Assembly: GCA_036504955.1 (NCBI GenBank)
Contig: DASXUI010000097.1
Location: 1 to 60,874 of the forward strand
Direction of reading: 5' to 3'
Source of the DNA: Armatimonadota bacterium
Lineage (GTDB): Bacteria; Armatimonadota; DTGP01; DASXUI01
DNA: 60,874 nt
Positions 11,548 to 58,422 of this stretch are shown here, piece after piece. Numbering within the stretch: the first letter of the stretch is position 1; each line of letters opens with the position of its first letter. The translations under genes and the position numbers were made by a program. The notes under the pieces were generated by a model, which saw only the letters and a list, made by a program, of their open reading frames with translations, was not told the origin of the DNA and searched no databases.

Positions 11548-11633
11548 TACATGTCGTAGTGTCCAGTATGGGCACTCCTGAGCGTGGATCTGGCGCCAGC
11601 CGGCCGGAATGTAGCTGTGCGTGTAGCTGTGCG
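11548..11633. other. attL (core 13-mer plus phage-side arm repeats)
   Basis: Core TACATGTCGTAGT at 11548-60. CCGGAATGTAGCTGT at 11604-18, with TGTAGCTGT repeated at 12-bp spacing (11610-18 and 11622-30), ends 16 nt before the int stop codon. Confidence 0.65.
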
Positions 11634-11648
11634 TTTCGGGACGCCCCG

Positions 11649-12755
11649 CTAGGCGCCCTTCAGGCCGAGGTACTGGCTCAGGTCCTCCAGGGCCTGTGCC
11701 TGCCGCTTCTGCAGCACCTCCACGTAGACCCGCTCCGTCACGGCGGTGCCGCTGTGGCCCAGGAGCCGACTCACCACCTCCATCGACTGGCCCGAGTCGA
11801 ACTGGAGGGTGGCGAAGGTCTTCCGGAGGTCGTGAAGCCGAACCTCCTTCGTCAGCCCCGCCGCCTCCCGCACCTGGCCCCACAGGCGCTCGATGCTGCT
11901 GTCCCCGAGCTGCTTCCCGCCGCGACCGGGGAAGAGGTAGCCCTCGTCGCTCCATGTGGGGTCGAAGCGTCGCTGGAGCTGCGCCAACTGGTGCGCTCTC
12001 AGCCGAGGCAGCAGGGACTCCGGAACCTGCAGGGTGCGCCGACTGGTGGCGCTCTTCGTGCCCTGCACCTCCAGGGCGCCGGTCGTGAGGTCGAGGTGCT
12101 GCCACTGGAGGCGGAGCAGCTCGCCGCGGCGCAGGCCCAGCAGCAGAGCCAGGATGAACAGGAGCCCCATCGGGTGCTCCTCGCAGACACCCAGGAGGGT
12201 GATGGCCTGCTCTCGCGTCAGCGCGACGTGCTCATAGGTCGCGCCTCGCGGTGTGTCGGCGCGGGAGGCCGCGTTGTAGGGCACCAGCGACAGCTTCACC
12301 GCTCGCCCCAGGGCGGCCCGGATGGTGGCCTTGATGAGCCGCAGGGTGTTGTCCGCCGCGCCACCCTGAGCCGCGTGCCTCAGCATCCGATCCACGTCCT
12401 GCGGCAGCACCTGGGCGAGGCGCTTCCGGCCCAGCGCCGGCAGGATGTGGACCCGGCACATCTGGTCATAGTTGCGCCAGGTGTCGGGCGCCCGCTCTCG
12501 CTTCACCACCTCCAACCACTCGGCCAGGAACTGCGCGAAGGGCTGCAGGGCGCCGGAGGTATCCACTCCCATCTGCAGGTCCTTCACCGCGTTGGAGAGC
12601 AGCCTCCGTGCCTCTGCCCTCGTGTTCCGCTTAGGCGGGCAGTACAGGACCCGGCGCTTACCCTCCAGGTCCCGATAGGAGGCGCAGTAGCGCCCGTCGC
12701 TGGCCCGCTGGTAAACACTCCCCTCCCCGTTGCCACGTCTTCCCGCCTTGCCCAT
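11649..12755 (-). CDS. int: tyrosine recombinase / phage integrase
   Basis: N-terminal GSVYQRASDGRY.. SAM-like arm-binding region. C-terminal catalytic region HDLRKTFATL...LLGHSGTAVTERVY (R..HxxR..Y). ATG 12755 has GGGAGG 4 nt upstream; the track starts 6 codons earlier at GTG 12773. Confidence 0.95.
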   Translation of the reverse strand: MGKAGRRGNGEGSVYQRASDGRYCASYRDLEGKRRVLYCPPKRNTRAEARRLLSNAVKDLQMGVDTSGALQPFAQFLAEWLEVVKRERAPDTWRNYDQMCRVHILPALGRKRLAQVLPQDVDRMLRHAAQGGAADNTLRLIKATIRAALGRAVKLSLVPYNAASRADTPRGATYEHVALTREQAITLLGVCEEHPMGLLFILALLLGLRRGELLRLQWQHLDLTTGALEVQGTKSATSRRTLQVPESLLPRLRAHQLAQLQRRFDPTWSDEGYLFPGRGGKQLGDSSIERLWGQVREAAGLTKEVRLHDLRKTFATLQFDSGQSMEVVSRLLGHSGTAVTERVYVEVLQKRQAQALEDLSQYLGLKGA

Positions 12756-12784
12756 CGCGCCTCCCAATCCCACCTTGGCGGGCG

Positions 12785-13055
12785 ATGGGAGGGCTCCTGC
12801 CGGGCCTTCACCCTGACGGAGACGCTGGTGGTGCTGGTCGCCCTCGCCCTCCTGCTGGCGCTGCTGCTGCCCTCCCTGCTGGGCTGCAAGCGGGCGGCGG
12901 AGGCGGTGGTGGCGCGCGAGAGCCAGCGGCAGGACGGGTTGGCGTACCTGGCGCGGGAGGGCGGGCGGTACTCGGGCGCCGGGTGGGCGTGGGAGCAGCG
13001 TGTGGAGGGGGACGCGGAGAGCACGGAGCCCTACGAGTGGCAGCCGTGCTGGTGA
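12785..13055 (+). pseudogene. prepilin-type N-terminal domain protein, 1-nt out of frame with its only ATG
   Basis: The frame ending at 13055 encodes ..CRAFTLTETLVVLVALALLLALLLPSLLGCKRAAEAVV.., a class III prepilin signal and hydrophobic helix, but has no ATG/GTG/TTG upstream. The ATG at 12785 is in the adjacent frame. Removing one base restores either MGGLLPG/FTLTE or MEGSCRA/FTLTE. Confidence 0.6.
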
Positions 13056-13067
13056 GGAGGTAGGGGG

Positions 13068-13388
13068 ATGATATTCGAGGCACTGAGCGAGGCTGCTGAT
13101 CGTGGCGAGCTGCTGCTAGTGGACGGCGGCATCTGCCACTACCACCTACGCCGGGATGGGCAGATCACCATCCGCGAGATACTGGTGCTGCCGGAGCGGC
13201 GCCACCAAGGCATCGGTACCGCGATGCTGGAGCACCTCCGGCAGGTACCTGGGGCCGTATGCATCAGGGCATGGATGCCCTCCGACCTGCCAGCGCGTCG
13301 CTGGTACGAGGAGCACGGGTTTGTGGAGAAGGACCGCAAGCGCTCAGGGGCAGGTAGGAGCCTCACGCTATGGCACCTCGACCTCTGA
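13068..13388 (+). CDS. small GNAT-family N-acetyltransferase
   Basis: 106 aa with GGAGG 6 nt upstream. GNAT motif A ILVLPERRHQGIGTAML plus WYEEHGF. Confidence 0.75.
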   Translation: MIFEALSEAADRGELLLVDGGICHYHLRRDGQITIREILVLPERRHQGIGTAMLEHLRQVPGAVCIRAWMPSDLPARRWYEEHGFVEKDRKRSGAGRSLTLWHLDL

Positions 13389-14035
13389 GGTTGATCTACT
13401 GCCACGGCGGCAACAGGGCGGCGGCGAGCGTTGCCCGGGAGTGCGGATGGGACGTTGGGTCAAGGAGCGACAAGGTGATCTATGACGAGGCCAGGCCGTT
13501 GGCGCTCCTTGACATCCACTGGACCCGATACGACTGGCGTTCCCACCTAGCAGTAGCTAGCGCAGAGCATCCCTGGATGGCTGCGGTTCCTGACCTTGAG
13601 TCCCACGCACACCTTCGCCAGTGTATGGAGCAGGCTGAGGATCTGGCCCCCCATTGCACGCGCCTGATGCTCATACCCAAGGCGTATGATGCCATCGACC
13701 TGATCCCGGAGGTGGTCGGGGGCACCTCAGTAGTGCTTGGCTACTCCGTGCCTACCACCTACGGCGGTACCAGTGTCCCTCTCTGGGAGTTCGGTCAACG
13801 CCCAGTGCATCTGCTTGGTGGATCCCCGAGGGCACAAAAGGCAGTCGCCAGATACCTGAATGTGGTCAGCCTGGACGGGAACATGGCGTGGAAGATCGCC
13901 AGTCGGTTCACTCGCTCCTATGCTGCGGATGGATCCCACGGAGGCCAGGATGGGCAATCTATCGAGTCGGGTGCGCCAATGGAGGCTTTGCGTAAGTCGC
14001 TGATGAACCTACGCGAGTTCTGGGCCACCCCATGA
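13370..14035 (+). CDS. hypothetical protein (uncharacterised, alternating beta/alpha pattern)
   Basis: 221-aa ORF overlapping the GNAT gene by 19 nt. I recognise no family. Conserved-looking blocks are LMLIPKAYD, VLGYSVPTTYGGT and PVHLLGGSP. Confidence 0.55.
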   Translation: MAPRPLRLIYCHGGNRAAASVARECGWDVGSRSDKVIYDEARPLALLDIHWTRYDWRSHLAVASAEHPWMAAVPDLESHAHLRQCMEQAEDLAPHCTRLMLIPKAYDAIDLIPEVVGGTSVVLGYSVPTTYGGTSVPLWEFGQRPVHLLGGSPRAQKAVARYLNVVSLDGNMAWKIASRFTRSYAADGSHGGQDGQSIESGAPMEALRKSLMNLREFWATP

Positions 14036-14337
14036 GGCGCTCCATCGGCGGTCGCTCCGCCCCGCCCAGCCCCGAGATGGCAGAGTCCGCGGCCCGCAGG
14101 CGCGTCGGCCGGATGGTGGACGCGCTGCTGGAGGACGGGGAGGAGGAGGCCCGCCGGTGGCTGCGGCAGGAGCGGAGGCGCGCCCAGAACGCCGCACGGC
14201 CCAGCGCCTACTGGCGGGCCTACGAGGATGCTACGGCGGAGGCGTGCGCGGAGGAACTGGCGAAGCTGGGAGGTAGTGAGAGGAGGGAGCGCGTGGCTAC
14301 GGGGCTACCGCTGTTCGAGGAGGCAGGAAGGAGATAG
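14032..14337 (+). CDS. hypothetical charged helical protein
   Basis: 101 aa with an ATGA start/stop overlap with the upstream gene. Confidence 0.45.
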   Translation: MRRSIGGRSAPPSPEMAESAARRRVGRMVDALLEDGEEEARRWLRQERRRAQNAARPSAYWRAYEDATAEACAEELAKLGGSERRERVATGLPLFEEAGRR

Positions 14338-14341
14338 GGGG

Positions 14342-14824
14342 ATGCTAGACGAGGTAACGCTAGGTGCGCGAGAGGCGGTACTGGACCGGCTGAGGGAGTT
14401 CTACTCCGAACAGATCGTGATGGCGATGGCCCAGGCCGCTAGCGGAGACGCTAGACGCGATGCGACGCCCTGGGAGCTCGCCCTACAACACAGGGAAGAG
14501 CTCTACATGAACCCTTGGCTCAGGGCGGAGTTCGCGGCCCTGGAGGGCATCACGCCACACCAGGTCAACACGCTCATGGCCTCTGAGCATCTCTATTCGG
14601 GGAGCCTCGAGATCAGCAGGGGCGAGCTCACGGCCACTCTTCACAGGAACACGACTCTGACGGAGGAGGGTCCCTGGTCCGTGTGGTGGCGCCGAGGCGC
14701 AGGAGCGGAGAGGGTGACGTGGCACTCCTCCCTAGAGGACGCCTGGCGGGCCGCCAGATCAGGACAGCCCCCAACACCCTCTAGCCCCCCACCACCAACC
14801 GCAGCACCGCCGCCACGTCCCTGA
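14342..14824 (+). CDS. hypothetical protein
   Basis: ATG 14342 is preceded by GGAAGGAG (the track ORF starts earlier at 14228). 160 aa with a Pro-rich tail. The 3' end overlaps the convergent dockerin gene by 44 nt. Confidence 0.45.
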   Translation: MLDEVTLGAREAVLDRLREFYSEQIVMAMAQAASGDARRDATPWELALQHREELYMNPWLRAEFAALEGITPHQVNTLMASEHLYSGSLEISRGELTATLHRNTTLTEEGPWSVWWRRGAGAERVTWHSSLEDAWRAARSGQPPTPSSPPPPTAAPPPRP

Positions 14825-15428
14825 CGTCCACCCGACCATCCCCGTTCACGTCCGCCGGGCCCGCGCCACAGGGGCTCGGCGGAACCCCTGTCACCAGGTA
14901 CAGCCCTATCGCCTGCGCGTCCGCCAGCGTCACCCGCCCGTCGCCGTTCATGTCTCCGACCTGACAACCTGGCACCCTCAACGCCACCGTCGGCAGCAGC
15001 CCCACGTCTCGGACCTCAGCCCCGTAGAGGTCCGTCATCACCACTGAGGCGGGCCGCACGGTGTAGCTGTGGCCCGGTGGCGCGTCGGCCGGCACCTGTA
15101 GGCGCAGGGTCAGCATCGGACCGCCGGACCCCTGGCCGGGGTAGCTGGCCAACGCCACGTGCAGCGGGTCGGCCGTGCCCTGGGCGCACTGCCAGCCGAC
15201 CCCTACCCCTACGGGCGACCAGGTCGGCGACGTCAGGGCGGGGATGCCGGGTGTGTCCGGGGTCACCGTAACCTGCAGCTCCAGGCCTGTGATGATGCAA
15301 TCCACCATGCCGGGCAGGCTGTAGGTCACCACGGCCGCTGAGCCGGGAGTGACAGCGGAGACGGTGGCGGTGATGGGCTTGGGTGCGAAGGACAGCGCTA
15401 GCAGCGCCACCAGGGGTGCCAGGTTCAT
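14781..15428 (-). CDS. secreted cohesin-like + dockerin (type I repeat) domain protein
   Basis: Signal peptide MNLAPLVALLALSFAPKP, then a beta-rich cohesin-like domain, then two EF-hand dockerin repeats GDMNGDGRVTLADAQ and DVNGDGRVDVRDVAAVLRLVVGG. Start/stop ATGA overlap with the sigma factor gene. Confidence 0.7.
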   Translation of the reverse strand: MNLAPLVALLALSFAPKPITATVSAVTPGSAAVVTYSLPGMVDCIITGLELQVTVTPDTPGIPALTSPTWSPVGVGVGWQCAQGTADPLHVALASYPGQGSGGPMLTLRLQVPADAPPGHSYTVRPASVVMTDLYGAEVRDVGLLPTVALRVPGCQVGDMNGDGRVTLADAQAIGLYLVTGVPPSPCGAGPADVNGDGRVDVRDVAAVLRLVVGG

Positions 15429-16042
15429 CGAAGGACCTCCTGTAACCGTATCCGGGCGCGCTTGCGGAGTCGCCAGGCCTGCTGCTCAGAGCAGCCGAGG
15501 CGCCGACCCGCCTCCGCCATCGTGTAGCCCTCGGCCGATAAGCTGCAGACGGCTCGTTCCGCGGGCGGGAGGCGCCCAAGCTCCGATCGGAGCACCACTA
15601 GTCGGGGAATGGGGATGCGGGTATCGGCAGGTTCGGAGAGGCGTTCCCCGCACTCGCTCACATAGGGGTCGTCCAGAGAGAGCACCTGGCGTAACGCCAA
15701 GGGGGTGCCCTCCGGGTCCGACCCGGAGTAGCGCTCCTGCACCCAGGCGGCGACGCGGACTAGGGAGCCGCGGTCCCGCAGGGCGTGCAGGATGGCGCCC
15801 TGGGCCTGCTTGTAGGCGAAGGTGAGGAACTGCGCGCGACGCTCTGGGTTGAAGGCCTGGATAGCCTGAAGGATGCCCAGGGCGCCCTCCTGGTAGAGGT
15901 CTTCGCTCGGCGTGCCGGTGCCCCCGTAGCGGTTCGAGAGCCGAGTAAGGAGGGGATGCAGCACCGACAGAACCGCCGCCTTGGCCTCCTGGTCGCCGGC
16001 CTGCGCCCGCAGCGCCAGGGCAGTCAGTGCCTCGGGGCGCAC
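15425..16042 (-). CDS. sigma-70 family RNA polymerase sigma factor (regions 2 and 4)
   Basis: Region 2 DLYQEGALGILQAIQAFNPERRAQFLTFAYKQAQGAILHALRD and region 4 HTH LPPAERAVCSLSAEGYTMAEAGRRLGCSEQQAWRLRKRA. I place the start at GTG 16042. The 397-aa track ORF's N-terminus is a shadow over the amidase gene. Confidence 0.8.
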   Translation of the reverse strand: MRPEALTALALRAQAGDQEAKAAVLSVLHPLLTRLSNRYGGTGTPSEDLYQEGALGILQAIQAFNPERRAQFLTFAYKQAQGAILHALRDRGSLVRVAAWVQERYSGSDPEGTPLALRQVLSLDDPYVSECGERLSEPADTRIPIPRLVVLRSELGRLPPAERAVCSLSAEGYTMAEAGRRLGCSEQQAWRLRKRARIRLQEVLR

Positions 16043-16584
16043 AGCAGGGGCCTCGCCCAGGGTTGGGCCAGCAGGACGGCGCCGCGAAGGTCCGAGCGGT
16101 CCAGGCTGTTGCCGGGACAGCTCTTGTGGGCCTCTGGGAAGTCCCGGTGGAAGTGAAGATGGCTGATCGGGAGCCCGTAGCGCTCCATCAGGCCGCCCAG
16201 CAGCCCCAGGGTGGCGTGCCGCTGGAGCCCCTCCAGCACGTCGTGCCCCCGGTCGAAGTTCCCCACCATGGACACGGCCACACAGTGCCGGTTGGCCTCC
16301 TGGTCGCTGTTGGCGTTCAGCACAGGCGCCAGGTCCACAAAGGGCGCGTAGATGACGCCTCCGGGACTGACCAGCAGGTGGTACCCAGGCGGGCGCTCCC
16401 AGCCCTCCCGCTGGCGCCGCTCCTCCCAGTAGGAGAGCATCCCCGAGACGCTCGGGTCGCCCTTCCACTGGGCATGGGTGGGCGCGGAGGTGTGGTGCAG
16501 CACCACGCCGTTGATGTGCCTCCCGCCGTCGTTCAGAGCGCGCAACGACGGCAGGAGGTCTTCGACCCGCAGCCAGCGGTTCAC
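16024..16584 (-). CDS. N-acetylmuramoyl-L-alanine amidase endolysin (amidase_2/PGRP, T7-lysozyme type)
   Basis: VVLHHTSAP and HFHRDFPEAHKSCPGNS zinc-ligand motifs. GTG 16584 overlaps the holin stop (GTGA). Confidence 0.85.
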   Translation of the reverse strand: MNRWLRVEDLLPSLRALNDGGRHINGVVLHHTSAPTHAQWKGDPSVSGMLSYWEERRQREGWERPPGYHLLVSPGGVIYAPFVDLAPVLNANSDQEANRHCVAVSMVGNFDRGHDVLEGLQRHATLGLLGGLMERYGLPISHLHFHRDFPEAHKSCPGNSLDRSDLRGAVLLAQPWARPLLCAPRH

Positions 16585-16766
16585 CTCTCGTAGGTGCCCT
16601 GCTGCACCTTGGCCGCATCGATCTTGCTCTGGCCGTAGATGAGCGTCCAGGCGGTACCGGCGGCGAGGGCGGCGGCCTCCTTCAGGCTCAGGCCGTGGCC
16701 CATGGCGCCAAAGAACGCGCCGGCGATGGTCAACAGGCCGAGGGTCCACTTCTTGCTGATCTTCAT
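16581..16766 (-). CDS. holin-like small membrane protein
   Basis: 61 aa from ATG 16766 (GAGGAG upstream). Hydrophobic segments WTLGLLTIAGAFFGAMG and AAALAAGTAWTLIYG, directly upstream of the amidase. Confidence 0.55.
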   Translation of the reverse strand: MKISKKWTLGLLTIAGAFFGAMGHGLSLKEAAALAAGTAWTLIYGQSKIDAAKVQQGTYER

Positions 16767-16774
16767 CTCACTCC

Positions 16775-17110
16775 TCACTTTCCTAGAACGTGGTTGCCAC
16801 CCACCTGGAAGAGGTAGATGGCTATCCCTACCAGCAGGGTAAGCACTGCCCCGCTGACGCGCTCCACCCAGGGGTTCGGGCGCCGGGCCTCCGCCTGGGC
16901 TGCTTGGAGCTGGTCGATCCGTGAGGACATGCCGTCCATGCGAGCGGACATCCCCGCGACAGTGATACAGACCGACTGGAGCTGCCCCCCTTGGTGCTCC
17001 TGTCGCGTCTCGATACGGCCGATGGCATCGCCCAGACTGCCTGCTAGCGTGCGGGCCACTGCCGCGTCCTCCCGCGCCTTCCCGTTCACAGCTCCGTCGG
17101 TCGGTACCAT
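16775..17110 (-). CDS. XhlA-like lysis-associated membrane protein
   Basis: 111 aa with an N-terminal coiled coil and a C-terminal TM VSGAVLTLLVGIAIYLFQV. The order XhlA-like, holin, amidase mirrors the PBSX xhlA-xhlB-xlyA cassette. Confidence 0.5.
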   Translation of the reverse strand: MVPTDGAVNGKAREDAAVARTLAGSLGDAIGRIETRQEHQGGQLQSVCITVAGMSARMDGMSSRIDQLQAAQAEARRPNPWVERVSGAVLTLLVGIAIYLFQVGGNHVLGK

Positions 17111-17129
17111 CTAGCTCCCCCCAGGCATG

Positions 17130-17160
17130 AAAAAGGCGGCTCGGTCAGTGACCGTCCGCC
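17130..17160 (-). terminator. rho-independent terminator between the Skp-like gene and the lysis cassette
   Basis: The minus strand reads GGCGGACGGTCACTGACCGAGCCGCC (nested GGCGG/CCGCC and CGGTC/GACCG stems) followed by TTTTT, 20 nt before the XhlA-like ATG. Confidence 0.6.
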
Positions 17161-17206
17161 GTCTGCGCAACTATCGATCTATCAGATCATATGGATCGAT
17201 GGATCC

Positions 17207-17743
17207 CTACTTCGCCTTCTTCAGCGCCTCCACTACCTGCGCCGTCACGTCACGCCCGCCGGCCCAGCATAGCTCGGCGTCCACAAGGGCCGCCAGCCCC
17301 TCCGCAGCCAGCACCACCCCACACGCAGCCCGCAACGCGCTCCGGGCTTCCGCGTCCGCCGCCTGCTGGCGCTGGGCCAGCTCGCGGTTCAGCCGCGCCT
17401 CCAGCGCCTTGAGCTGCTGAGCGATGCCGTCGTGCTTCTCCTGCAACACCGTTCGGGCGACGCTTTGGCCCGAGGGCAGCTTGCGGATCTCCGCCTTCAG
17501 CCGCGCCTGCTCCTTCGCCGCCGCGTTGCGTGCGTCGTTGAACTCCTTGTCCGCCGCCTCCTTGGCCGCCTTCAGCGCCTGCTGTGTGGCAGGCAGGCCC
17601 GGCCAGGCGCTCAGCGCCCTCCGTGCGTCCAGGGTGCCGATAGCCGGCCCGTCCGCCGCCCACAGGCGCGGGAGGGGGGTGCCCAGCAGCAGCAGGGCGA
17701 GGGCGGCCGCGACGCCGCCACCGATGCGCGTTCGTGTGCTCGT
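17207..17743 (-). CDS. OmpH/Skp-like periplasmic chaperone homologue (start codon unresolved)
   Basis: My translation gives (ACG)STRTRIGGGVAAALALLLLGTPLPRLWA/ADGPAIGTLD...coiled coil...LRAACGVVLAAEGLAALVDAELCWAGGRDVTAQVVEALKKAK. This is collinear with E. coli Skp (ADKIAIVN... and ...DLVVDANAVAY..DIT..V). GGAGG lies 5 nt upstream of ACG 17743. The first ATG/GTG/TTG in frame is not until 17449. Confidence 0.6.
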   Translation of the reverse strand, partial: TSTRTRIGGGVAAALALLLLGTPLPRLWAADGPAIGTLDARRALSAWPGLPATQQALKAAKEAADKEFNDARNAAAKEQARLKAEIRKLPSGQSVARTVLQEKHDGIAQQLKALEARLNRELAQRQQAADAEARSALRAACGVVLAAEGLAALVDAELCWAGGRDVTAQVVEALKKAK

Positions 17744-17753
17744 GGTTGCCTCC

Positions 17754-20700
17754 TTATGAGCCTGTGTAGCCTGTAATGATGCCGCCTACGACCGTGATGG
17801 TCCCGGTTGCCGTGGTGATGGAGCCAGACCAGCCTGCTGTAGTCGCGTAGCCGCGAACCACCGCAAAGCTACTGCTCGTCTTGATGACTCCCGATGCCCC
17901 GATGGTCCCGGTAACCTCGATCGCCGCGTCAGCGCTGCTTGCCGCGTTGACCCGGATGCCCATTCCGGCTGAGCTGAGTTGCTGCACCTGTAGCGAGGGA
18001 TATGAACTACTGGCCGTGCAGAACACAGTGCCGTTGGGGCCGTAGGACAGGCTGCTGTCGTAGAGACCCCACCCATCGCTGGGGTTCGAGGTTAGCTGGC
18101 TGACGAACGGGAAAATGCCGTTCGAGATGCCAGCCCTTACCACTGAGTTGGTGTTGGTCAGGCTCTTCCAGCTCCGCACCCCCGCCGCCGTGCTGCTCAG
18201 CACCATCCCGTCGGTGGCGGGATTGCCGAGGCCCGGCTCCTTGCCAGCGAAGGAGTTGTAGGTGCCGCTTGCCAGCATCCCGTCGTGCGTGCTGTCCGCG
18301 TACTGACTGCTCAACGCTTGGCCGGCCAGCGTGAGCCCTCCGGAGGACGCGCCTAGCGTCACCGCCGAGTGGAACCGCGCATCGTTGCCCTGCGCCGCCG
18401 TGCCCGCCGTGGATCCATAGGTCACGGAGACCTGTTGCCCCGATAGGCTGACGCCAGCCCCTGCGGTCACCGCGTCATGAAAGCGGCTATCGTTACCCTG
18501 GGCAGAGGTGCCCGCCGTGGTGCCGTAGGTCACGCTCACCTGCTGCCCCGAGAGCCCGATGCCCGTCCCGGCCGTCACCGCCGCGTGCCGCTGGCTGATG
18601 GCGCTCGTGAGGTCCGCCGTCGCCGCCACGATGCTCAGCGCCCCCGTAGTCGCCGTCGCCCCCACCACCCCGCCGGCCGAGAGGTTGGGCAACAGCACAC
18701 TGGAGCCGGCCCCGTTCGCGGTCAGCGACAGGTTGCCGTTGGAGGAGGAGAGGGAGAGGCGTCCACTTGGCAACGCTTGCAGGTTGTAGAGGCCGGCGCC
18801 TTGGTCCCACAGGAAGAAGCTGTTGTCGTCAGCTTGCTTGCCCAGCGTCCACTTGGCGACAGCGGCATCGGCGAAGGTCAGGAACGCCTGGTAGGTGTTC
18901 GCCACCGGCGTATTGAGGATCAGGTTCGCCGCCCCGGACCCCAGGATCTTGGCCCCCAGCATCGACGTGACGCCGACGGCATCCACGCTCAGGGCGGGGT
19001 CAGGGCTCCCGCCCGAGGCAGCGAGACTGCTGTGGACGTGCCCCAGGAGGCTGTACCGCGTGTCGTGGTTGTGGGGTCCGTCCGCCACTTGGCCCACGCC
19101 TGGCCCCACGGAGAGGCCGAAGGTGCCGGTCGTGCCGTTGTAGGTCAGGGGCGCGGTGGCGCTCACCAGCCCCCGCACGCCCGCCGTGAAGGGCTGCCAG
19201 GTCCGGTCGCCCCTCAGATACGAGGTCCAGTCCCCGCCGGCAGGCAGGCCCTCCTTGGCGTTGAGTTGCGCTTGGATGCCGGAGGTCACCCCGTCTAGGC
19301 GCCCCAGCTCCGTCATATCCACCGCCGCCGGCCAGCCGGAGAGGTCGCTCGCCGCCGCCCCGCCCGAGAGGGTGCCGCCGGCGCTCTTCACGACGCCGGA
19401 GACGATGCTCGGCACCGCCAGCACTCCGGCAGCGTCCAGTGTGGCCTTGGGGGCGCCCGTGTTGGTGTAGATCGCCAGCGGGTTGCTGATGGCGTCCGAC
19501 CCCAGCCTGTTGGTGGCGGTCCCGTCGATCGTTTGGCCCAGCATCCAGTTCGCGCCGGCCCGCACCGCCTGCCCCTGCGGCAGGGAGAGACCCCCAGCCG
19601 TGGCCTCCAGGCTTCCCGCCTTGGCCGCGCCCGTCACCCACAGCCCGCCTGTCTGGCTGGCCGCTGGCGTCGCGGCCTGCAGCTGCACCTGCGGCACGTT
19701 GGCGAGCTGGTCGAGCCCCAGATTGACGCGCGCTCCGGCCGCCGTCCCGGCTCCGGTACCGCCGCTGATTACCGGGAGGAGCCCGCCCACCTGGGAGGCC
19801 AGATTGACGGCGCTCGACGAGTAGAGGTGGCCGCTGCTGTCAGCCATCAGGAACCCGCCCGTACCGATCAGGTCCGCGAGGATGAGGCTGCCCTTGGTGG
19901 CGTGGCTGGTGCTGCCGAGGGTGAGGTTGCCGCTCGCGACGTTGCTCCCGTACAGCGTCTGCCCGGAGCCGCGCCCCGCCAGGCGCGCGTATTGGGTGTG
20001 GTAGTCGCCCACGTCCGGGCCCGTCACGTCCGCATGGGCCACCGCGCCACCGAAGCTGACCCAGGCGGTGCCGTTGAAGACGTAGGATTTCGCCTCGTCG
20101 CCCACCAGCAGCGCGAGGTTGGTGGTCTGAGCACCACTGGCGGGCGTGAAAGTCCAGGCGGCGCCGCTCCACTCAGCGATGGCGTTGTCATGCGTGGCCC
20201 AGGCGCCCGTACCCGTGGGCCACACGATGTAACGTTGGCCCACCGCGGGGGTGCCAGGGGGCGTCGATAGGTCCTTGTCCAGGACCGACGCCGCCCAGGT
20301 GATGCCGGAGGCGCGGCTGTCTACGTAGGCCATCGTGGCGGCATCGCTGCCCGCCGAGGGGGTGCCGAGCCCGGTGATGCGGTACCCGCCCGCCGGCAGG
20401 TTGCCGGTCAGGGCGCGCCCGCCGTCGGCCCGCAGGTAGAGGGGATGATCGTCGGCCGTCAGGCCCGAGAGGCCGCTGTGGGGCAGCGTGGGCAGCGCCG
20501 TGCTGGCGATATGGCCGTCCGCCACCGTCAACGCCACGCCGCCGCTGCCCGCGTACAGGATGCCCGCCGTGGTCAGGGTGCCGGCGAAATACCCGTTGCC
20601 GGCCGCGCTCACCGTGAAGCGACCGACTCCGGAGGAGCTGTCGAGACTCAGCCCGTTGGCGACAGTGGAGCTGCCCAGGGTGATGAGGTTGGTACCGGCC

Positions 20701-21014
20701 GCCTGCGACAGGAGGTGCTGAGTGCCGTTGGCCCGCACGCTCCCCGCGCCGAGGTACAGGTGGCCGCCCGTGCCGATCGTCAGGCTCGCGGCCCGTACCA
20801 TCGGCGTGTCGGTGGCAACGCCCAGCACCTCCACACTGCCGGAGGTCTGCACGCGCAGCACGTTCGCGCCGTCCACGGTCGGGCGCACCAAGTGGGATCC
20901 GGTCTCCAGGTTGATAGTTGAGCGTACCTGTCTGCCGCTGTCCACCACGAAGTCCGCCCAGGAGGGCGAGACGAGGCAGGCAAGGGCGAGTAGAGCAAGG
21001 GACAGACGCCGCAT
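17754..21014 (-). CDS. tail fibre-like protein with Sec-type N-terminal signal sequence
   Basis: 1086 aa in the fibre position downstream of Tal. Fibre motifs LTADDHPLYLRADGGRALTGNL..ITGLGTPSAGSDAATMAYVDS and repeated ..YG.TAGT.AQGND.RFH. AGGAGG lies 5 nt before ATG 21014. The N-terminus is MRRLSLALLALACLVSPSWA/DF. Confidence 0.75.
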   Translation of the reverse strand: MRRLSLALLALACLVSPSWADFVVDSGRQVRSTINLETGSHLVRPTVDGANVLRVQTSGSVEVLGVATDTPMVRAASLTIGTGGHLYLGAGSVRANGTQHLLSQAAGTNLITLGSSTVANGLSLDSSSGVGRFTVSAAGNGYFAGTLTTAGILYAGSGGVALTVADGHIASTALPTLPHSGLSGLTADDHPLYLRADGGRALTGNLPAGGYRITGLGTPSAGSDAATMAYVDSRASGITWAASVLDKDLSTPPGTPAVGQRYIVWPTGTGAWATHDNAIAEWSGAAWTFTPASGAQTTNLALLVGDEAKSYVFNGTAWVSFGGAVAHADVTGPDVGDYHTQYARLAGRGSGQTLYGSNVASGNLTLGSTSHATKGSLILADLIGTGGFLMADSSGHLYSSSAVNLASQVGGLLPVISGGTGAGTAAGARVNLGLDQLANVPQVQLQAATPAASQTGGLWVTGAAKAGSLEATAGGLSLPQGQAVRAGANWMLGQTIDGTATNRLGSDAISNPLAIYTNTGAPKATLDAAGVLAVPSIVSGVVKSAGGTLSGGAAASDLSGWPAAVDMTELGRLDGVTSGIQAQLNAKEGLPAGGDWTSYLRGDRTWQPFTAGVRGLVSATAPLTYNGTTGTFGLSVGPGVGQVADGPHNHDTRYSLLGHVHSSLAASGGSPDPALSVDAVGVTSMLGAKILGSGAANLILNTPVANTYQAFLTFADAAVAKWTLGKQADDNSFFLWDQGAGLYNLQALPSGRLSLSSSNGNLSLTANGAGSSVLLPNLSAGGVVGATATTGALSIVAATADLTSAISQRHAAVTAGTGIGLSGQQVSVTYGTTAGTSAQGNDSRFHDAVTAGAGVSLSGQQVSVTYGSTAGTAAQGNDARFHSAVTLGASSGGLTLAGQALSSQYADSTHDGMLASGTYNSFAGKEPGLGNPATDGMVLSSTAAGVRSWKSLTNTNSVVRAGISNGIFPFVSQLTSNPSDGWGLYDSSLSYGPNGTVFCTASSSYPSLQVQQLSSAGMGIRVNAASSADAAIEVTGTIGASGVIKTSSSFAVVRGYATTAGWSGSITTATGTITVVGGIITGYTGS
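18358..18573 (-). repeat. 2 x 108-bp in-frame tandem repeat (plus partial third) inside the fibre gene
   Basis: Units start at 18358, 18466 and 18574 (GTCACCGC...). They encode H.AVTAG.G..LSGQQVSVTYG.TAGT.AQGND.RF. Confidence 0.85.
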
Positions 21015-28456: not shown

Positions 28457-28487
28457 TCACAAACCAGAAGGGGGCCCGAAGGCCCCC
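28457..28487 (-). terminator. stem-loop / partial terminator after the major tail protein gene
   Basis: The minus strand reads GGGGGCC-TTCG-GGCCCCC followed by TTCTGGTTTG. It lies between stop 28514 and the chaperone start. Confidence 0.5.
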
Positions 28488-28513
28488 CCCACATCCCCGG
28501 TTGCCGGCGCGGA

Positions 28514-29803: not shown

Positions 29804-29884
29804 GGGGGTCTCCTCCTGGCGCATGGAAAAGGCCCCTGGCGGTGGTCTGCCAGAGGCCTGAGTGCTAGTCTATGGGGTGCCCGA

Positions 29885-31513: not shown

Positions 31514-33424
31514 CTACTCCGGCCACACGTACCAGGCGTCGCCCGTGCCCTCGTAGGCGCGAGCCAGCCTCCAGGCCAGCAGGCGGTCTCCGGCCTGCAG
31601 GAAATGCACCTGGTCTAGGGTCAAGCTGTTCTGTTTCTCCCGCAGGGAGTTGATGCTCCCCAGGTCCATCACCCACGGGACCGTGTTGGCGACGAACACG
31701 CCCCGGTGGGCGCCCAGGGTGAGGAGAAGGCGGTTGAACAGATGGCGAGACTTCGTGTTGTACCAGGGAGAGACATCTTGGGAGTCGGCCGCGTAGGGGG
31801 GCACGTCGCTCAGGACGACCTCATTGTTGTAGGCGCGCGCCTGGCCGACCCAGGTCAGGAGGTCCGCGAACTCCCGGCGCACCGAGGCCATCATGGCCTC
31901 TTCCGTGCCCCAGAACGCCGTCCTCAGATCATTGGTCGCTCCGCACTCTACCAGGCAGACGGTCGCATCCCGCACCTCGCGAATGTCGTGACGACCGATG
32001 ACGCTGTTGGCGTGCCCTCCCCAGCGAACCCAGAAGGGTGTCTTGGTGGCGTCGTAGCTGTCGGGGCTGAACCCCTTGCCAGGGATGCCGAGGCCGATGA
32101 TGTAGGGTTGCGCCGCGAAGTACCCCAGGGTGCTGTCCTGCAGCTCCGCTCCTACGTGCTGGAGCGGGTAGGTGTACACGTAACTGTCCGCGCCCGCGAA
32201 CCAGGGCCGGCGCGCTACCACCAGCTTGCCGAGGGTGGGGATGCCGCCGCTCGAACTGATGGCGACACGGGTGATGTCGATCCACTCGTTGTTCACCGCG
32301 TCGATCTGGTCTCGGCTGCCCCTCACGCCAAGGGCCTTTACGGCGTGGCAGATGAGCGTGGTATCGCCAGCATCGGAGCCGCCCGCCTGGCCCACGGTCT
32401 TGTCGATGTAGTACAGGTCCGCCTTCTTCAGCGCCGGGTCGATGTGGACAGCGAAGGAGAACCTGCCCGCCGCCTCGCCCGCCCCTAGCGCGTTGCTGCG
32501 TCCCGCCCAGGTCACCTGATCGACGGCCCCGAGGTCGAGCACAAGCGTCTGTGCGGTGACCAGTGTCGCCTTGGTGGTAGCCGGGTTGTCCGTCCCTCGG
32601 ATGCCCTGGAGCGCGAGGGTCAGCGTCTGACCGTCCACGCCAATCACGTCATCGAAGATGAGGTAGTAGGGGCTCTGGAAGGCCGGCACCTTGTAGGTGT
32701 TGCCCGGAGCCGGGCTGGCCGTCTCCATGCGCTTGCAGGTCGTCTTGATGCAGGCCCGCAGCAGGATCGGGTAGGTCTGGTTTACGAGGCTGGCGGTGGG
32801 GATGGGGTCCGTAGACCAGACACCCACTAGCGAGCGGCAGGTCCCGCTGCCGCTCGCGCTCGCGCCCAGGGTCGGGTTGGAGGCGCCCGAGGCGTCGAGG
32901 TGGACCCCCACCAGATCCCCCGTGGCGATCGGCCCGATCCCGTTGGTGGTGCCGCCCGCCGTCAGGTCGATGGTCTGGTTGGCGCCGCCAGCGGGGTCGG
33001 TCGCGGTCCAGGCTACCGGTGTGCCGACCAACGCCAGGTTGGCGCCGCTCGTGCGGTACACACAAACCTTGCCGCCCGCCGCGTTGACGGAGGTCAGTGT
33101 GACGGAGGTAAGGTAGTGGCTGCCCAGCGCCGCCACCTCGGCCGGGAGCGTAATGGCATCGTCGGCGACGATCCACCCGTGCAGCCCTCCGGGGTTGCGC
33201 CAGGCGGCCACCGCGACGCTGGCCGCCGCGTTGTGGTCGTGGCCGTAGCCCCCGACCTGCAGCTCGTAGGCGCCGATGTCCCCGGTAGTGGAGGTCAGCA
33301 CCACGCTCTTGGCGCGGATGCCCTTCTGGGGCGTGGCGGCCCAGGCCTGTCCCCAGAGGAGGGTGAGGGCGACGAACAGGAGGGAGAGGGCGACGAACAG
33401 GAGGGAGAGGCGGTGAGTCCTCAT
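31514..33424 (-). CDS. exported SGNH/GDSL-type hydrolase-like protein embedded in the head-tail module
   Basis: 636 aa with the signal peptide MRTHRLSLLFVALSLLFVALTLLWGQAWA/ATP. The C-terminal half has VECGATNDL and LDQVHFLQAGDRLLAW (DxxH-type block V) consistent with SGNH esterases. Its start overlaps the upstream stop (TGATG). Confidence 0.6.
   Translation of the reverse strand: MRTHRLSLLFVALSLLFVALTLLWGQAWAATPQKGIRAKSVVLTSTTGDIGAYELQVGGYGHDHNAAASVAVAAWRNPGGLHGWIVADDAITLPAEVAALGSHYLTSVTLTSVNAAGGKVCVYRTSGANLALVGTPVAWTATDPAGGANQTIDLTAGGTTNGIGPIATGDLVGVHLDASGASNPTLGASASGSGTCRSLVGVWSTDPIPTASLVNQTYPILLRACIKTTCKRMETASPAPGNTYKVPAFQSPYYLIFDDVIGVDGQTLTLALQGIRGTDNPATTKATLVTAQTLVLDLGAVDQVTWAGRSNALGAGEAAGRFSFAVHIDPALKKADLYYIDKTVGQAGGSDAGDTTLICHAVKALGVRGSRDQIDAVNNEWIDITRVAISSSGGIPTLGKLVVARRPWFAGADSYVYTYPLQHVGAELQDSTLGYFAAQPYIIGLGIPGKGFSPDSYDATKTPFWVRWGGHANSVIGRHDIREVRDATVCLVECGATNDLRTAFWGTEEAMMASVRREFADLLTWVGQARAYNNEVVLSDVPPYAADSQDVSPWYNTKSRHLFNRLLLTLGAHRGVFVANTVPWVMDLGSINSLREKQNSLTLDQVHFLQAGDRLLAWRLARAYEGTGDAWYVWPE
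33365..33406 (-). repeat. perfect 21-bp tandem duplication inside the signal-peptide coding region
   Basis: GAGGGCGACGAACAGGAGGGA occurs twice (33365-85 and 33386-406) and encodes the duplicated LSLLFVA. Confidence 0.9.
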
Positions 33425-33708
33425 CACATCACCGCCTCTTCCGCCGTGAAGGGCTGGCCCGTGGTGTCGCCGATGATGTAGACGGCGCAGGCCGGCACCG
33501 CGTTGTCCCAGATGATGTCCTGCCCCTGGGTCAGGAGCCAGTAGCCCTTCCCCACCACGGCCGCCTGCCCCAGCCTCACGTAGAGAGGCAAGGGGCTCCG
33601 GCTAACCACCCGGAGGTAGCGGCGCTGGCGGGCCGGGTAGACCTGCTGCGAGACACCGCCGGCCGTGATGGTGCCCTCGGTCTCCACTGGGTCTATGATG
33701 TGCATCAT
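33424..33708 (-). CDS. hypothetical small beta-rich protein
   Basis: 94 aa, translationally coupled on both sides. Confidence 0.45.
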   Translation of the reverse strand: MMHIIDPVETEGTITAGGVSQQVYPARQRRYLRVVSRSPLPLYVRLGQAAVVGKGYWLLTQGQDIIWDNAVPACAVYIIGDTTGQPFTAEEAVM

Positions 33709-44279: not shown

Positions 44280-45137
44280 TCACCCCAGCCCCACCACCAG
44301 CCGCAGCAGCCGTATGGCGTCCTTCACCGTCACCTTGCCGTCCCCGTCTAGGTCCCCCGCGACGGGTGCGGGCGGCGGAGGTGGCGCCGGGAGGGTGTAC
44401 TCCCACAGGGCGACGCAGTCCAGGCCCATTCGATTCTCGAACATCTCAGGCTGGAATACGAGGACGCGCCGGGGGTTGTTGGGGTCCGTGGAGAGTTGAG
44501 CCGTAGGGGCGAAGGCTGGGCCAGCCAGCCCCTTCTGCCGCAGCTGCCAACTGATGCCTCCGTCATCGCTGAACTCCGGCACCACCGTCCATGGGCTGGG
44601 GGTCCATCCCCAGTCGTATGCTTGGCGTAGCCTCCATACCTCAGTGCCTGACAACCACGCACCCTTGCGGGTCGTGCGGGTCGGTGTCTGCCACCGTGGC
44701 TCTGTCAGCGCCCAGGTGGCTCCCCCGTCATGGCTGGTAGCGGTTTGGCCTCCCTCTGCCACTGTGCGGAACTGCACACTGTCGCGGTCGCTTGGGTCTA
44801 CCACCCCTTCCATCGACACGAGGACGCACCCCACACCCACGGGCAGATCGGCGGGTCGTTTCAGGGCGCTGGCGTCCATCGTTGGCCCCTGGAACTGCCG
44901 CCAAGACACTCCAAAGTCATCCGAACGCAGCAGTCCATAGCCAGGCTCGTTGATGCCTGCCTTGTTCGGGCCAAAGCTGGTGAGCACGTACAGCCGCGTG
45001 GGCTTACCTCCTACCGCCAGCACGCCCTCGTTGTCCTGCATGGAGGCCAGCAGGCAGGTCCACTCCCCTTCGCCGGCCCACGCGGCCCCGACACTCACCA
45101 GCGCCAGCAACCCCCACACCACCACCCGCTTGCCCAT
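44280..45137 (-). CDS. secreted BNR/Asp-box repeat protein with C-terminal dockerin-type repeat
   Basis: ATG 45137 with GAGGAGG upstream. Signal peptide MGKRVVVWGLLALVSVGAAWA, Asp boxes SDDFGVSW, SHDGGATW and SDDGGISW, and C-terminal GDLDGDGKVTVKDAIRLLRLVVGLG. Confidence 0.7.
   Translation of the reverse strand: MGKRVVVWGLLALVSVGAAWAGEGEWTCLLASMQDNEGVLAVGGKPTRLYVLTSFGPNKAGINEPGYGLLRSDDFGVSWRQFQGPTMDASALKRPADLPVGVGCVLVSMEGVVDPSDRDSVQFRTVAEGGQTATSHDGGATWALTEPRWQTPTRTTRKGAWLSGTEVWRLRQAYDWGWTPSPWTVVPEFSDDGGISWQLRQKGLAGPAFAPTAQLSTDPNNPRRVLVFQPEMFENRMGLDCVALWEYTLPAPPPPPAPVAGDLDGDGKVTVKDAIRLLRLVVGLG

Positions 45138-56683: not shown

Positions 56684-58422
<1,739 letters not shown>

Follow-up and report, generated by a model that had tools for sequence, protein, structure and literature searches.

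Phage sigma factors usually act as early or middle switches of transcription, or as regulators of lysogenic conversion. The late operon of the Bacillus subtilis element PBSX runs from xpf to xhlA-xhlB-xlyA. In Clostridioides difficile (TcdR-TcdE-TcdL) and Clostridium perfringens (UviA-UviB), a sigma factor is combined with holin and endolysin-like functions in protein-release loci. In temperate siphoviruses, the slot between the endolysin gene and the phage attachment site (att) harbors morons, and lambda bor lies after the lysis genes. Sigma factors similar to SigF and SigG are described in Bacillus phages, namely Bcp1 (bcp25/26), Wip4 (wip39) and SP10 (g120) (PMC2716549, PMC9429907). Bcp1 and Wip4 clones express these sigma genes from the genes' own promoters (PMC2716549). 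Here, we analyze a stretch of 60,874 nucleotides from an Armatimonadota bacterium (assembly GCA_036504955.1, contig DASXUI010000097.1, positions 1 to 60,874; hereafter the window), in which a phage lysis cassette is chained to a sigma factor gene and to a gene for a cohesin-like/dockerin protein. Within the library searched, the literature returned no account of phage cohesin-dockerin proteins, nor of a lysis cassette that includes a sigma gene.

Comparative sequence analysis shows a genuine, conserved feature whose position and content are both unusual, and two members are known. We favor the reading in which the sigma factor and the dockerin protein would be co-expressed with the lysis genes, as an integral late extension of the lysis operon, and we give it a probability of about 0.5. 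The evidence comes from the layout of the cassette, its place in the prophage, its comparison with a second phage and the DNA which precedes it.

Layout, prophage position and conservation of the cassette

Five co-oriented genes are tightly packed on the minus strand between positions 17110 and 14781:

17110-16775, minus strand: coiled-coil protein with a C-terminal membrane helix, 111 amino acids (aa)
16766-16581, minus strand: holin-like protein, 61 aa, recognized by its size, position and hydrophobic segments
16584-16024, minus strand: Amidase_2 endolysin, 186 aa, assigned with Pfam and PHROG
16042-15425, minus strand: sigma-70 family factor, 205 aa, assigned with Pfam Sigma70_r2 and Sigma70_r4_2
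15428-14781, minus strand: cohesin-like/dockerin protein, 215 aa, assigned with Pfam Dockerin_1 and an AlphaFold2 (AF2) fold

All the open reading frames (ORFs), junctions and overlaps are present as the initial annotation had described them. The first gene ends with TGA (16777-16775) and is separated by 8 nucleotides (nt) from the holin ATG at 16766, itself preceded by AGGAG at a distance of 4 nt. An alternative holin start, GTG at 16778, would give a GTGA overlap with the stop of the first gene. The last four genes are chained by overlapping stops and starts. The holin stop and the amidase start share GTGA (16584-16581). The amidase stop (16026-16024) overlaps the sigma gene, which starts with GTG at 16042, by 19 nt, and a GAGG motif is located 8 nt upstream of this GTG. 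Lastly, the sigma stop and the start of the dockerin gene share ATGA (15428-15425), with AGGAGG 7 nt upstream. Gene calls of the Joint Genome Institute (JGI) on a separate assembly of the same DNA yield the same products (111, 61, 186, 205 and 215 aa). The guanine-cytosine (GC) content of the window is 67.7%, and at third codon positions (GC3) the five ORFs reach 0.77-0.94, as high as in real genes here. Four-base overlaps are common in operons. The packing is an operon signature, unremarkable alone; the gene content at this position is the oddity.

The cassette is part of a 45-kb prophage, a temperate siphovirus inserted in groEL at the 3′ end of the gene. The limits of the prophage are marked by a 13-bp direct repeat, TACATGTCGTAGT, with copies at 11548-11560 and 56783-56795, the right of which corresponds to the groEL 3′ end. 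A further 15-bp repeat, CCGGAATGTAGCTGT, is found just within both ends, at 11604 and 56673. The late genes occupy the minus strand from ~41.2 kb down to 17.7 kb and include those for the large terminase, an SPP1-type portal, the tape measure, Dit and a 1086-aa fiber. They lie on one strand with small gaps between them, and the early genes are on the opposite strand: the plus strand between 46.6 and 56.7 kb encodes Gam, RecT, a DnaC-like loader, a methylase, an XRE regulator and an excisionase-like protein. Since the genes from terminase to fiber share the strand of the cassette and the early genes do not, the five genes are the last of the late block. The sigma and dockerin genes are the final two of this late/lysis block, ~3.2 kb from the left attachment site (attL). 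The prophage map therefore bears out the initial placement of the sigma gene, downstream of the endolysin at the end of the late region. No second complete sigma gene was found in the prophage.

Beyond its last gene, the cassette faces a convergent cargo operon on the plus strand, with int after it. Base composition separates the two units. The GC and GC3 values of the sigma gene (0.70 and 0.83) and of the dockerin gene (0.71 and 0.87) are near those of the amidase, fiber and portal genes, whereas the cargo genes are lower (GC 0.61-0.65, GC3 0.70-0.78). The composition of the pair is that of the phage core, unlike that of the neighboring cargo operon.

A second Armatimonadota phage (so annotated at NCBI) is the sole relative found. 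It comes from the same soil sample and was assembled independently by JGI (L001) and Logan (L002). Its gene order is fiber, Skp/OmpH-like protein, hairpin, 115-aa protein, 61-aa holin, 176-aa protein, 205-aa sigma factor and 216-aa dockerin protein. The sigma start lies one base past the preceding stop, and the dockerin gene has the same ATGA overlap. Start codons and ribosome-binding sites are preserved between the two phages. Identity to L001 is 69% for the holin, 56% for the sigma factor and 47% for the dockerin protein. For the first gene, it is 29% in a local BLASTP alignment (E 3e-7) and 32% over 107 globally aligned codons.

The endolysin slot of the relative is occupied by the 176-aa protein (L001 9272-9802), which has a weak CHAP match (E 0.006), and the two endolysins are unrelated (E 0.014). 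DNA homology ends at the holin stop, where GTGA is kept in both phages, and restarts exactly at the sigma start codon. On this comparison, the endolysin is swapped as a module whose junctions are the holin stop and the sigma start. The gene on the far side of the dockerin gene also differs between the phages. As seen in the two genomes, the sigma-dockerin pair is a stable phage part between exchangeable modules.

The ratio of nonsynonymous to synonymous substitution (dN/dS) amounts to 0.40 for the sigma gene, 0.50 for the dockerin gene and 0.49 for the tail fiber gene, with synonymous sites near saturation. Both genes of the pair are intact and under purifying selection. Disruption of the sigma ORF in related prophages would have spoken against the first interpretation of this locus; in the relative the ORF is intact, with a dN/dS of ~0.4. 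Searches for additional members gave little. Scans of the IMG/VR viral contigs with the sigma factor, the dockerin protein and the holin found no relatives. A word-indexed search of 5.8 billion clusters retrieved just the one relative described above for both the holin and the sigma factor; for the dockerin protein its matches were weak and limited to the dockerin.

Predicted products

The identity of the sigma factor is confirmed by regions 2 and 4, which score above the Pfam cut-offs (Sigma70_r2, 51.5 bits with a cut-off of 24; Sigma70_r4_2, 27.2 bits with a cut-off of 25.7). Pfam Sigma70_r3 has no match in the protein, and sigma-1.1 is also lacking. An AF2 model built from a nine-sequence alignment comprises a confident sigma-2 domain (residues 1-93, predicted local distance difference test (pLDDT) >80) and a helical sigma-4 domain (residues 146-204). 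The linker between them (residues 95-148) is modeled as disordered, with pLDDT <50, yet its sequence (WVQERY..DPEGTPL) shows strong conservation from one phage to the other. The DLYQEG..G...A motif of region 2, the core-binding regions and the helix-turn-helix are conserved in the relative as well.

The initial annotation left the choice between group 3 and the extracytoplasmic function (ECF) group to further work. The sigma-2 domain is of the group 1-3 type and carries a region-1.2-like N-terminal helix. In the Protein Data Bank (PDB), SigF (1L0O) is closest to it by sequence. By fold, SigB, SigH, sigma-S, sigma-32 and WhiG match best, with no ECF factors among them, and the nearest representative proteins carry r2-r3-r4. 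The SigBFG subfamily model reaches 65.7 bits, below its cut-off of 234. On sequence and model, the protein is thus a two-domain sigma-70 factor of group-3 ancestry. Assignment to group 3 proper fails, as there is no folded region 3. An ECF sigma is rejected: Sigma70_ECF stays at 15.3 bits, below its cut-off of 21.1, no cytoplasmic anti-sigma domain is encoded downstream, and only the two-domain layout is shared. The group-3 option consequently holds for sigma-2 but not for the missing sigma-3.

An exhaustive search of 1.84 billion representative proteins with a hidden Markov model retrieved only the factor's own cluster at E<=1e-30, the next match having 94 bits. By this measure, the sigma factor is an orphan lineage. 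Among GenBank phages, matches are distant only and the nearest are the Bacillus phage sigma factors. Genome and metagenome scans returned distant matches which are all chromosomal and uninformative on the phage arrangement: a 198-200-aa factor by panB in Armatimonadota, true SigF of Bacillota encoded after spoIIAA/AB, and an ECF-like factor from a planctomycete. In three Armatimonadota sequences (L008 1819-2415, L009 9977-10579 and L010 9977-10564), a conserved two-domain sigma factor of 195-200 aa is encoded beside panB; it shares the RAQAGDQEA motif with the phage factor and is 29-32% identical to it. Capture of the pair from the host's small sigma factor is unsupported, since this identity is no better than that to SigF of Bacillota.

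The lysis proteins are recognized with unequal clarity. The first product, initially called XhlA-like, has the expected architecture (a coiled coil and a single C-terminal membrane helix, residues 84-106) but does not match the family: there is no hit to Pfam XhlA (PF10779) at E<=1 and none in NCBIfam. A PHROG 'membrane protein' family is matched weakly (E 0.0098). The protein is probably a lysis accessory protein, XhlA-like by architecture only. The 61-aa protein contains a strong hydrophobic segment (7-23), a weak one (31-45) and a charged tail. It has no family match in Pfam or PHROG and only two members across the 5.8 billion clusters, but its size, position and hydrophobic segments fit, and to call it a holin, as was done before, is a reasonable inference. 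The amidase scores 46.8 bits with Pfam Amidase_2 (cut-off 26), matches PHROG endolysin/amidase and contains the H..H...K-x-C-P residues. It has no signal or hydrophobic segment and so would need the holin. With an Amidase_2 domain, no export signal and a holin upstream, it is a predicted phage endolysin, a zinc amidase of the N-acetylmuramoyl-L-alanine amidase type. Its ORF extends ~25 codons beyond the catalytic domain, into the region upstream of the sigma gene.

The last product of the cassette matches Dockerin_1 (PF00404) with 40.3 bits (cut-off 22.9) at residues 158-209, and its L001 counterpart with 45.1 bits. Both calcium-binding repeats (D-x-N-x-D-G...D) are found, at 14954 and 14852. 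What had been read as a double dockerin is a single module with the usual two calcium-binding repeats. Upstream of it, approximately residues 20-150 form a beta-sandwich in an AF2 model, and the top PDB matches of this model are the cohesins 2vo8, 2jh2 and 5nrk (template modeling score 0.60-0.63 on the target, E ~5e-5). The term 'cohesin-like' is thus supported at the level of the fold only (in a model of pLDDT 69), and Pfam cohesin has no match in the protein. From residue 3 on, the N-terminus forms a hydrophobic helix that is conserved in the relative but lacks a basic n-region, so the protein, earlier proposed to be Sec-exported, is better called putatively exported. No match was found among 50,697 phage records. 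A cohesin-like module joined to a dockerin in one protein is the architecture expected of an adaptor.

A candidate partner is encoded outside the cassette:

44280-45137, minus strand: BNR/Asp-box protein, 285 aa, assigned by its signal peptide and motifs

This protein begins with a canonical signal peptide, contains three BNR/Asp-box motifs and ends in a single dockerin-type repeat, ...DLDGDGKVTVKDAIRLLRLVVGLG. Its tail resembles the end of the dockerin protein, ...DVNGDGRVDVRDVAAVLRLVVGG (LRLVVGLG compared with LRLVVGG). It is a candidate ligand of the cohesin-like domain.

Proposed expression with the lysis genes and competing readings

Two elements are located between the late genes and the cassette:

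17173-17205, minus strand: AT-rich, GATC-rich island of 33 bp, directly after the Skp/OmpH-like gene
17130-17160, minus strand: terminator-like hairpin GGCGGACGGTCACTGACCGAGCCGCC followed by TTTTT, recognized by its fold

The hairpin is unique in the window and stands 20 nt ahead of the first cassette start codon, too close for a promoter to fit in between. L001, L002 and L003 contain it as well, and in L001 it was also marked as a terminator-like element. At ~94% identity, the block GACGGCGG...CCTGGGGG is the best-conserved DNA between the two phages, far above the flanking genes. Similar hairpins with T-runs are present in the late block, after tail-region genes (28461-28513 and 29825-29884, minus strand). 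Because such hairpins stand within an otherwise gap-free late block, late transcription must read through them or be antiterminated. The island is the sole promoter-like patch upstream of the cassette. Its TATGAT aligns with TATGGT in the relative, and it is poorly conserved between the two phages; island and hairpin together correspond to L001 8640-8720. Public contigs (JGI, Logan) break inside the island and leave 17192-17239 uncovered; a chimeric join at 17.2 kb is countered by the same gene order across it in L001 and L002. Rfam gave no family match in the region.

In the favored reading, the sigma and dockerin genes would have no promoter of their own and would be made from the late mRNA which also encodes the holin and the endolysin. 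The conserved hairpin would gate the cassette, as late transcription has to pass it first. The sigma factor, through sigma-2 and sigma-4, would then bind the host core RNA polymerase in the late period and direct it to a small set of promoters. The cohesin-like/dockerin protein would be inserted into or exported across the membrane and serve as an adaptor in a surface cohesin-dockerin network. Its candidate ligands are host dockerin proteins, the dockerin of the adaptor itself and the dockerin-type tail in which the BNR protein ends. A possible benefit for the phage at or after lysis may be modification of the envelope or debris, or tethering.

Of the two options proposed initially, a promoter inside the amidase gene or synthesis together with the lysis proteins, our analysis leans toward the second. 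The reasons are the endolysin swap, the lack of shared upstream sequence, the absence of a promoter-like site and the core composition of the pair. A promoter upstream of the cassette would be unusable in a lysogen, because the holin and endolysin would be expressed too. Expression of the pair in the lysogen would therefore need a promoter within the endolysin gene, where the two endolysins share no sequence. The two phages have no promoter sequence ahead of the sigma gene in common, since homology restarts with its start codon. A scan for sigma-70-type consensus promoters found no site at 13500-18500 of the window nor at 7900-12200 of L001; the consensus was of the Escherichia coli type and would miss promoters used by alternative sigma factors or by Armatimonadota.

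This limit of the scan is one of several points which weigh against joint expression. The two endolysin genes could each contain an internal promoter, not homologous to that of the other. In biological terms, a sigma factor and a surface protein make more sense in a lysogen than in a cell on the verge of lysis, and lysogenic-conversion genes classically occupy the slot between endolysin and att. The sequencing runs which contain the region amount to one soil DNA run and no RNA run, so that co-transcription is inferred. Conservation is known from two phages of one soil sample. For the adaptor role, the cohesin assignment depends on a model with a pLDDT of 69 and a low-confidence stretch at residues 72-103, and export is uncertain for a signal devoid of a basic n-region.

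Several of these points converge on the strongest competitor, in which the pair is a lysogeny-expressed moron, that is, lysogenic-conversion genes with a promoter in the 3′ part of the endolysin gene and perhaps a boost by late read-through. The sigma factor would reprogram some host promoters and the dockerin protein would coat the lysogen, for instance for superinfection exclusion or adhesion. We regard this as possible yet doubtful. The position at the prophage end, by the cargo operon and int, agrees with it, as does the pairing of a regulator with a surface protein, and the ~25 amidase codons past the catalytic domain may embed former intergenic DNA. Phage sigma factors acting in lysogens have precedents in Bcp1 and Wip4 (PMC2716549). 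Against it stand the same absence of promoter-like sites and of common upstream sequence, start codons which overlap the preceding genes, a GC and GC3 profile which is that of the phage core, and the cost of any promoter placed ahead of the cassette.

A bolder form of the favored reading, which we consider unlikely, is a private cohesin-dockerin system wired to lysis. The sigma factor made from the lysis mRNA would amplify the cassette or activate genes for exported dockerin proteins, and the adaptor would assemble these proteins, the BNR protein included, on the envelope or debris at release. If true, the assembly could mask receptors, tether progeny or condition their surroundings, and it would be both a late phage function of a new class and the first cohesin-dockerin system carried by a phage.

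The sigma factor might also act on the lysis genes themselves, by recognizing an island promoter of its own cassette, so that a trickle of read-through becomes a burst and lysis timing is sharpened. Many alternative sigma factors autoregulate their own operons, and here the sigma gene lies inside the unit to be controlled, no other sigma gene exists in the phage, and 33 bp of AT-rich DNA with a partly conserved TATGAT/TATGGT directly precede the cassette in 68% GC DNA. Nevertheless, such self-amplification seems rather improbable: the terminator-like hairpin intervenes between island and genes, and it is the hairpin which is conserved and the island which is not. Moreover, no cognate motif can be defined, as a comparison of the phage intergenic regions gave only 10-11-mers shared at chance level.

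That the pair is hitch-hiking or decaying cargo devoid of a present function fits the tiny size of the lineage, but is very improbable given that both ORFs are intact in both phages with dN/dS of 0.4-0.5 and that starts, ribosome-binding sites, overlaps, core-binding regions and the helix-turn-helix are kept. Least credible is a sigma/anti-sigma-type pair with the downstream membrane protein as anti-sigma factor or sensor, as in ECF or SigI-RsgI systems: an ATGA-coupled sigma gene followed by a hydrophobic-helix protein with an extracytoplasmic domain does recall ECF operons, and SigI-RsgI systems control cohesin and dockerin genes in Clostridium thermocellum, but the helix begins at residue 3 and leaves no cytoplasmic anti-sigma domain, no anti-sigma, RsgI or zinc-finger family is matched, and the sigma factor is neither ECF-like nor SigI-like in sequence or fold.

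Surroundings and comparison with known systems

Further genes surround the cassette. The operon on which it converges is the following:

12828-14824, plus strand: cargo operon, overlapping the dockerin gene by 44 nt

It encodes a prepilin-type protein of 75 aa, a GNAT protein of 106 aa, a DUF6610 protein (154 bits) and two unknown proteins of 101 and 160 aa. The 101-aa protein is 58% identical in L001, and the 160-aa protein is absent from it. On the other side, the Skp/OmpH-like gene (17207-17744, minus strand) has a signal-peptide-like N-terminus and no ATG, GTG or TTG before 17449; an AAGGAGG site is followed by ACG at the proper spacing. Its L001 homologue is 42% identical and matches Pfam OmpH with 48.7 bits. 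Canonical Sec-type signal peptides open the 1086-aa protein at the fiber position (17754-21014, minus strand) and a 637-aa protein of the structural block (31514-33427, minus strand), which is odd for virion proteins. In L001, past the cargo genes of this phage, the opposite strand at 12049-15616 carries a seemingly truncated capsid-like ORF, a Peptidase_S78_2 prohead protease and a GGDEF gene, and may be a second, degraded prophage alongside.

A sigma gene inside a lysis operon which is kept through an endolysin exchange suggests that the factor acts at or around release, or that accessory genes are linked to induction by a new route. Its partner would extend cohesin-dockerin assembly, at present a matter of cellulosomes and a few bacterial surface systems, to phages, and the occurrence of two dockerin-tailed phage proteins hints at the use of a host surface docking network. 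The host is uncultured and belongs to a barely studied phylum, and we offer a well-defined hypothesis rather than a discovery.

With regard to the partner protein, the comparison is with non-cellulosomal cohesins and adaptor scaffoldins, such as those of C. perfringens GH33/GH84C and Ruminococcus flavefaciens ScaA/ScaB. Like these, it combines a cohesin-like module with a dockerin, and its best structural matches are among them. In contrast, no cohesin is matched here at the sequence level, the protein is phage-encoded, and the sole evident carbohydrate-active partner is the BNR protein.

The phage sigma factors of Bacillus are likewise phage-borne sigma-70 factors, some of them in temperate phages, and they set a precedent for action on host promoters; the sigma-2 domain of the Armatimonadota factor is most like SigF. 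Identity to them is 23-35% locally and ~25% where the match covers most of the protein. The hosts belong to another phylum, and the Armatimonadota factor has no sigma-3. Furthermore, the Bacillus genes mostly reside in genomes of ~130-165 kb, whereas here the gene is chained to the endolysin gene at the end of the late block. The initial annotation cited Bacillus phage sigma factors which alter sporulation as a precedent. The resemblance of sigma-2 to SigF fits this, but the precedent serves as an analogy only, with a host in Armatimonadota and no relative at E<=1e-30 outside the factor's own cluster among the 1.84 billion representative proteins.

The PBSX late operon shares with the cassette a sigma-like factor and the same order of membrane accessory protein, holin and amidase. 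It differs in that xpf stands at the start of the late operon as its switch, and the first gene of our cassette does not match the XhlA family. The TcdR and UviA loci are similar in that a holin and an endolysin-type gene stand in one locus with a small two-domain sigma factor and a protein to be released. These loci are non-virion, and their sigma factors, of the TcdR group, are encoded upstream and drive the locus; here the phage is complete, the sigma gene is downstream and no TcdR-type match is found.

Finally, the moron slot of temperate siphoviruses is alike in position: there too, accessory genes come after the lysis genes close to the end of the prophage, where late read-through can raise their expression. 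Classic morons have a promoter and terminator of their own and a deviant composition. In contrast, the sigma-dockerin pair overlaps its neighbors, has the composition of the phage core and is kept through the exchange of the endolysin.

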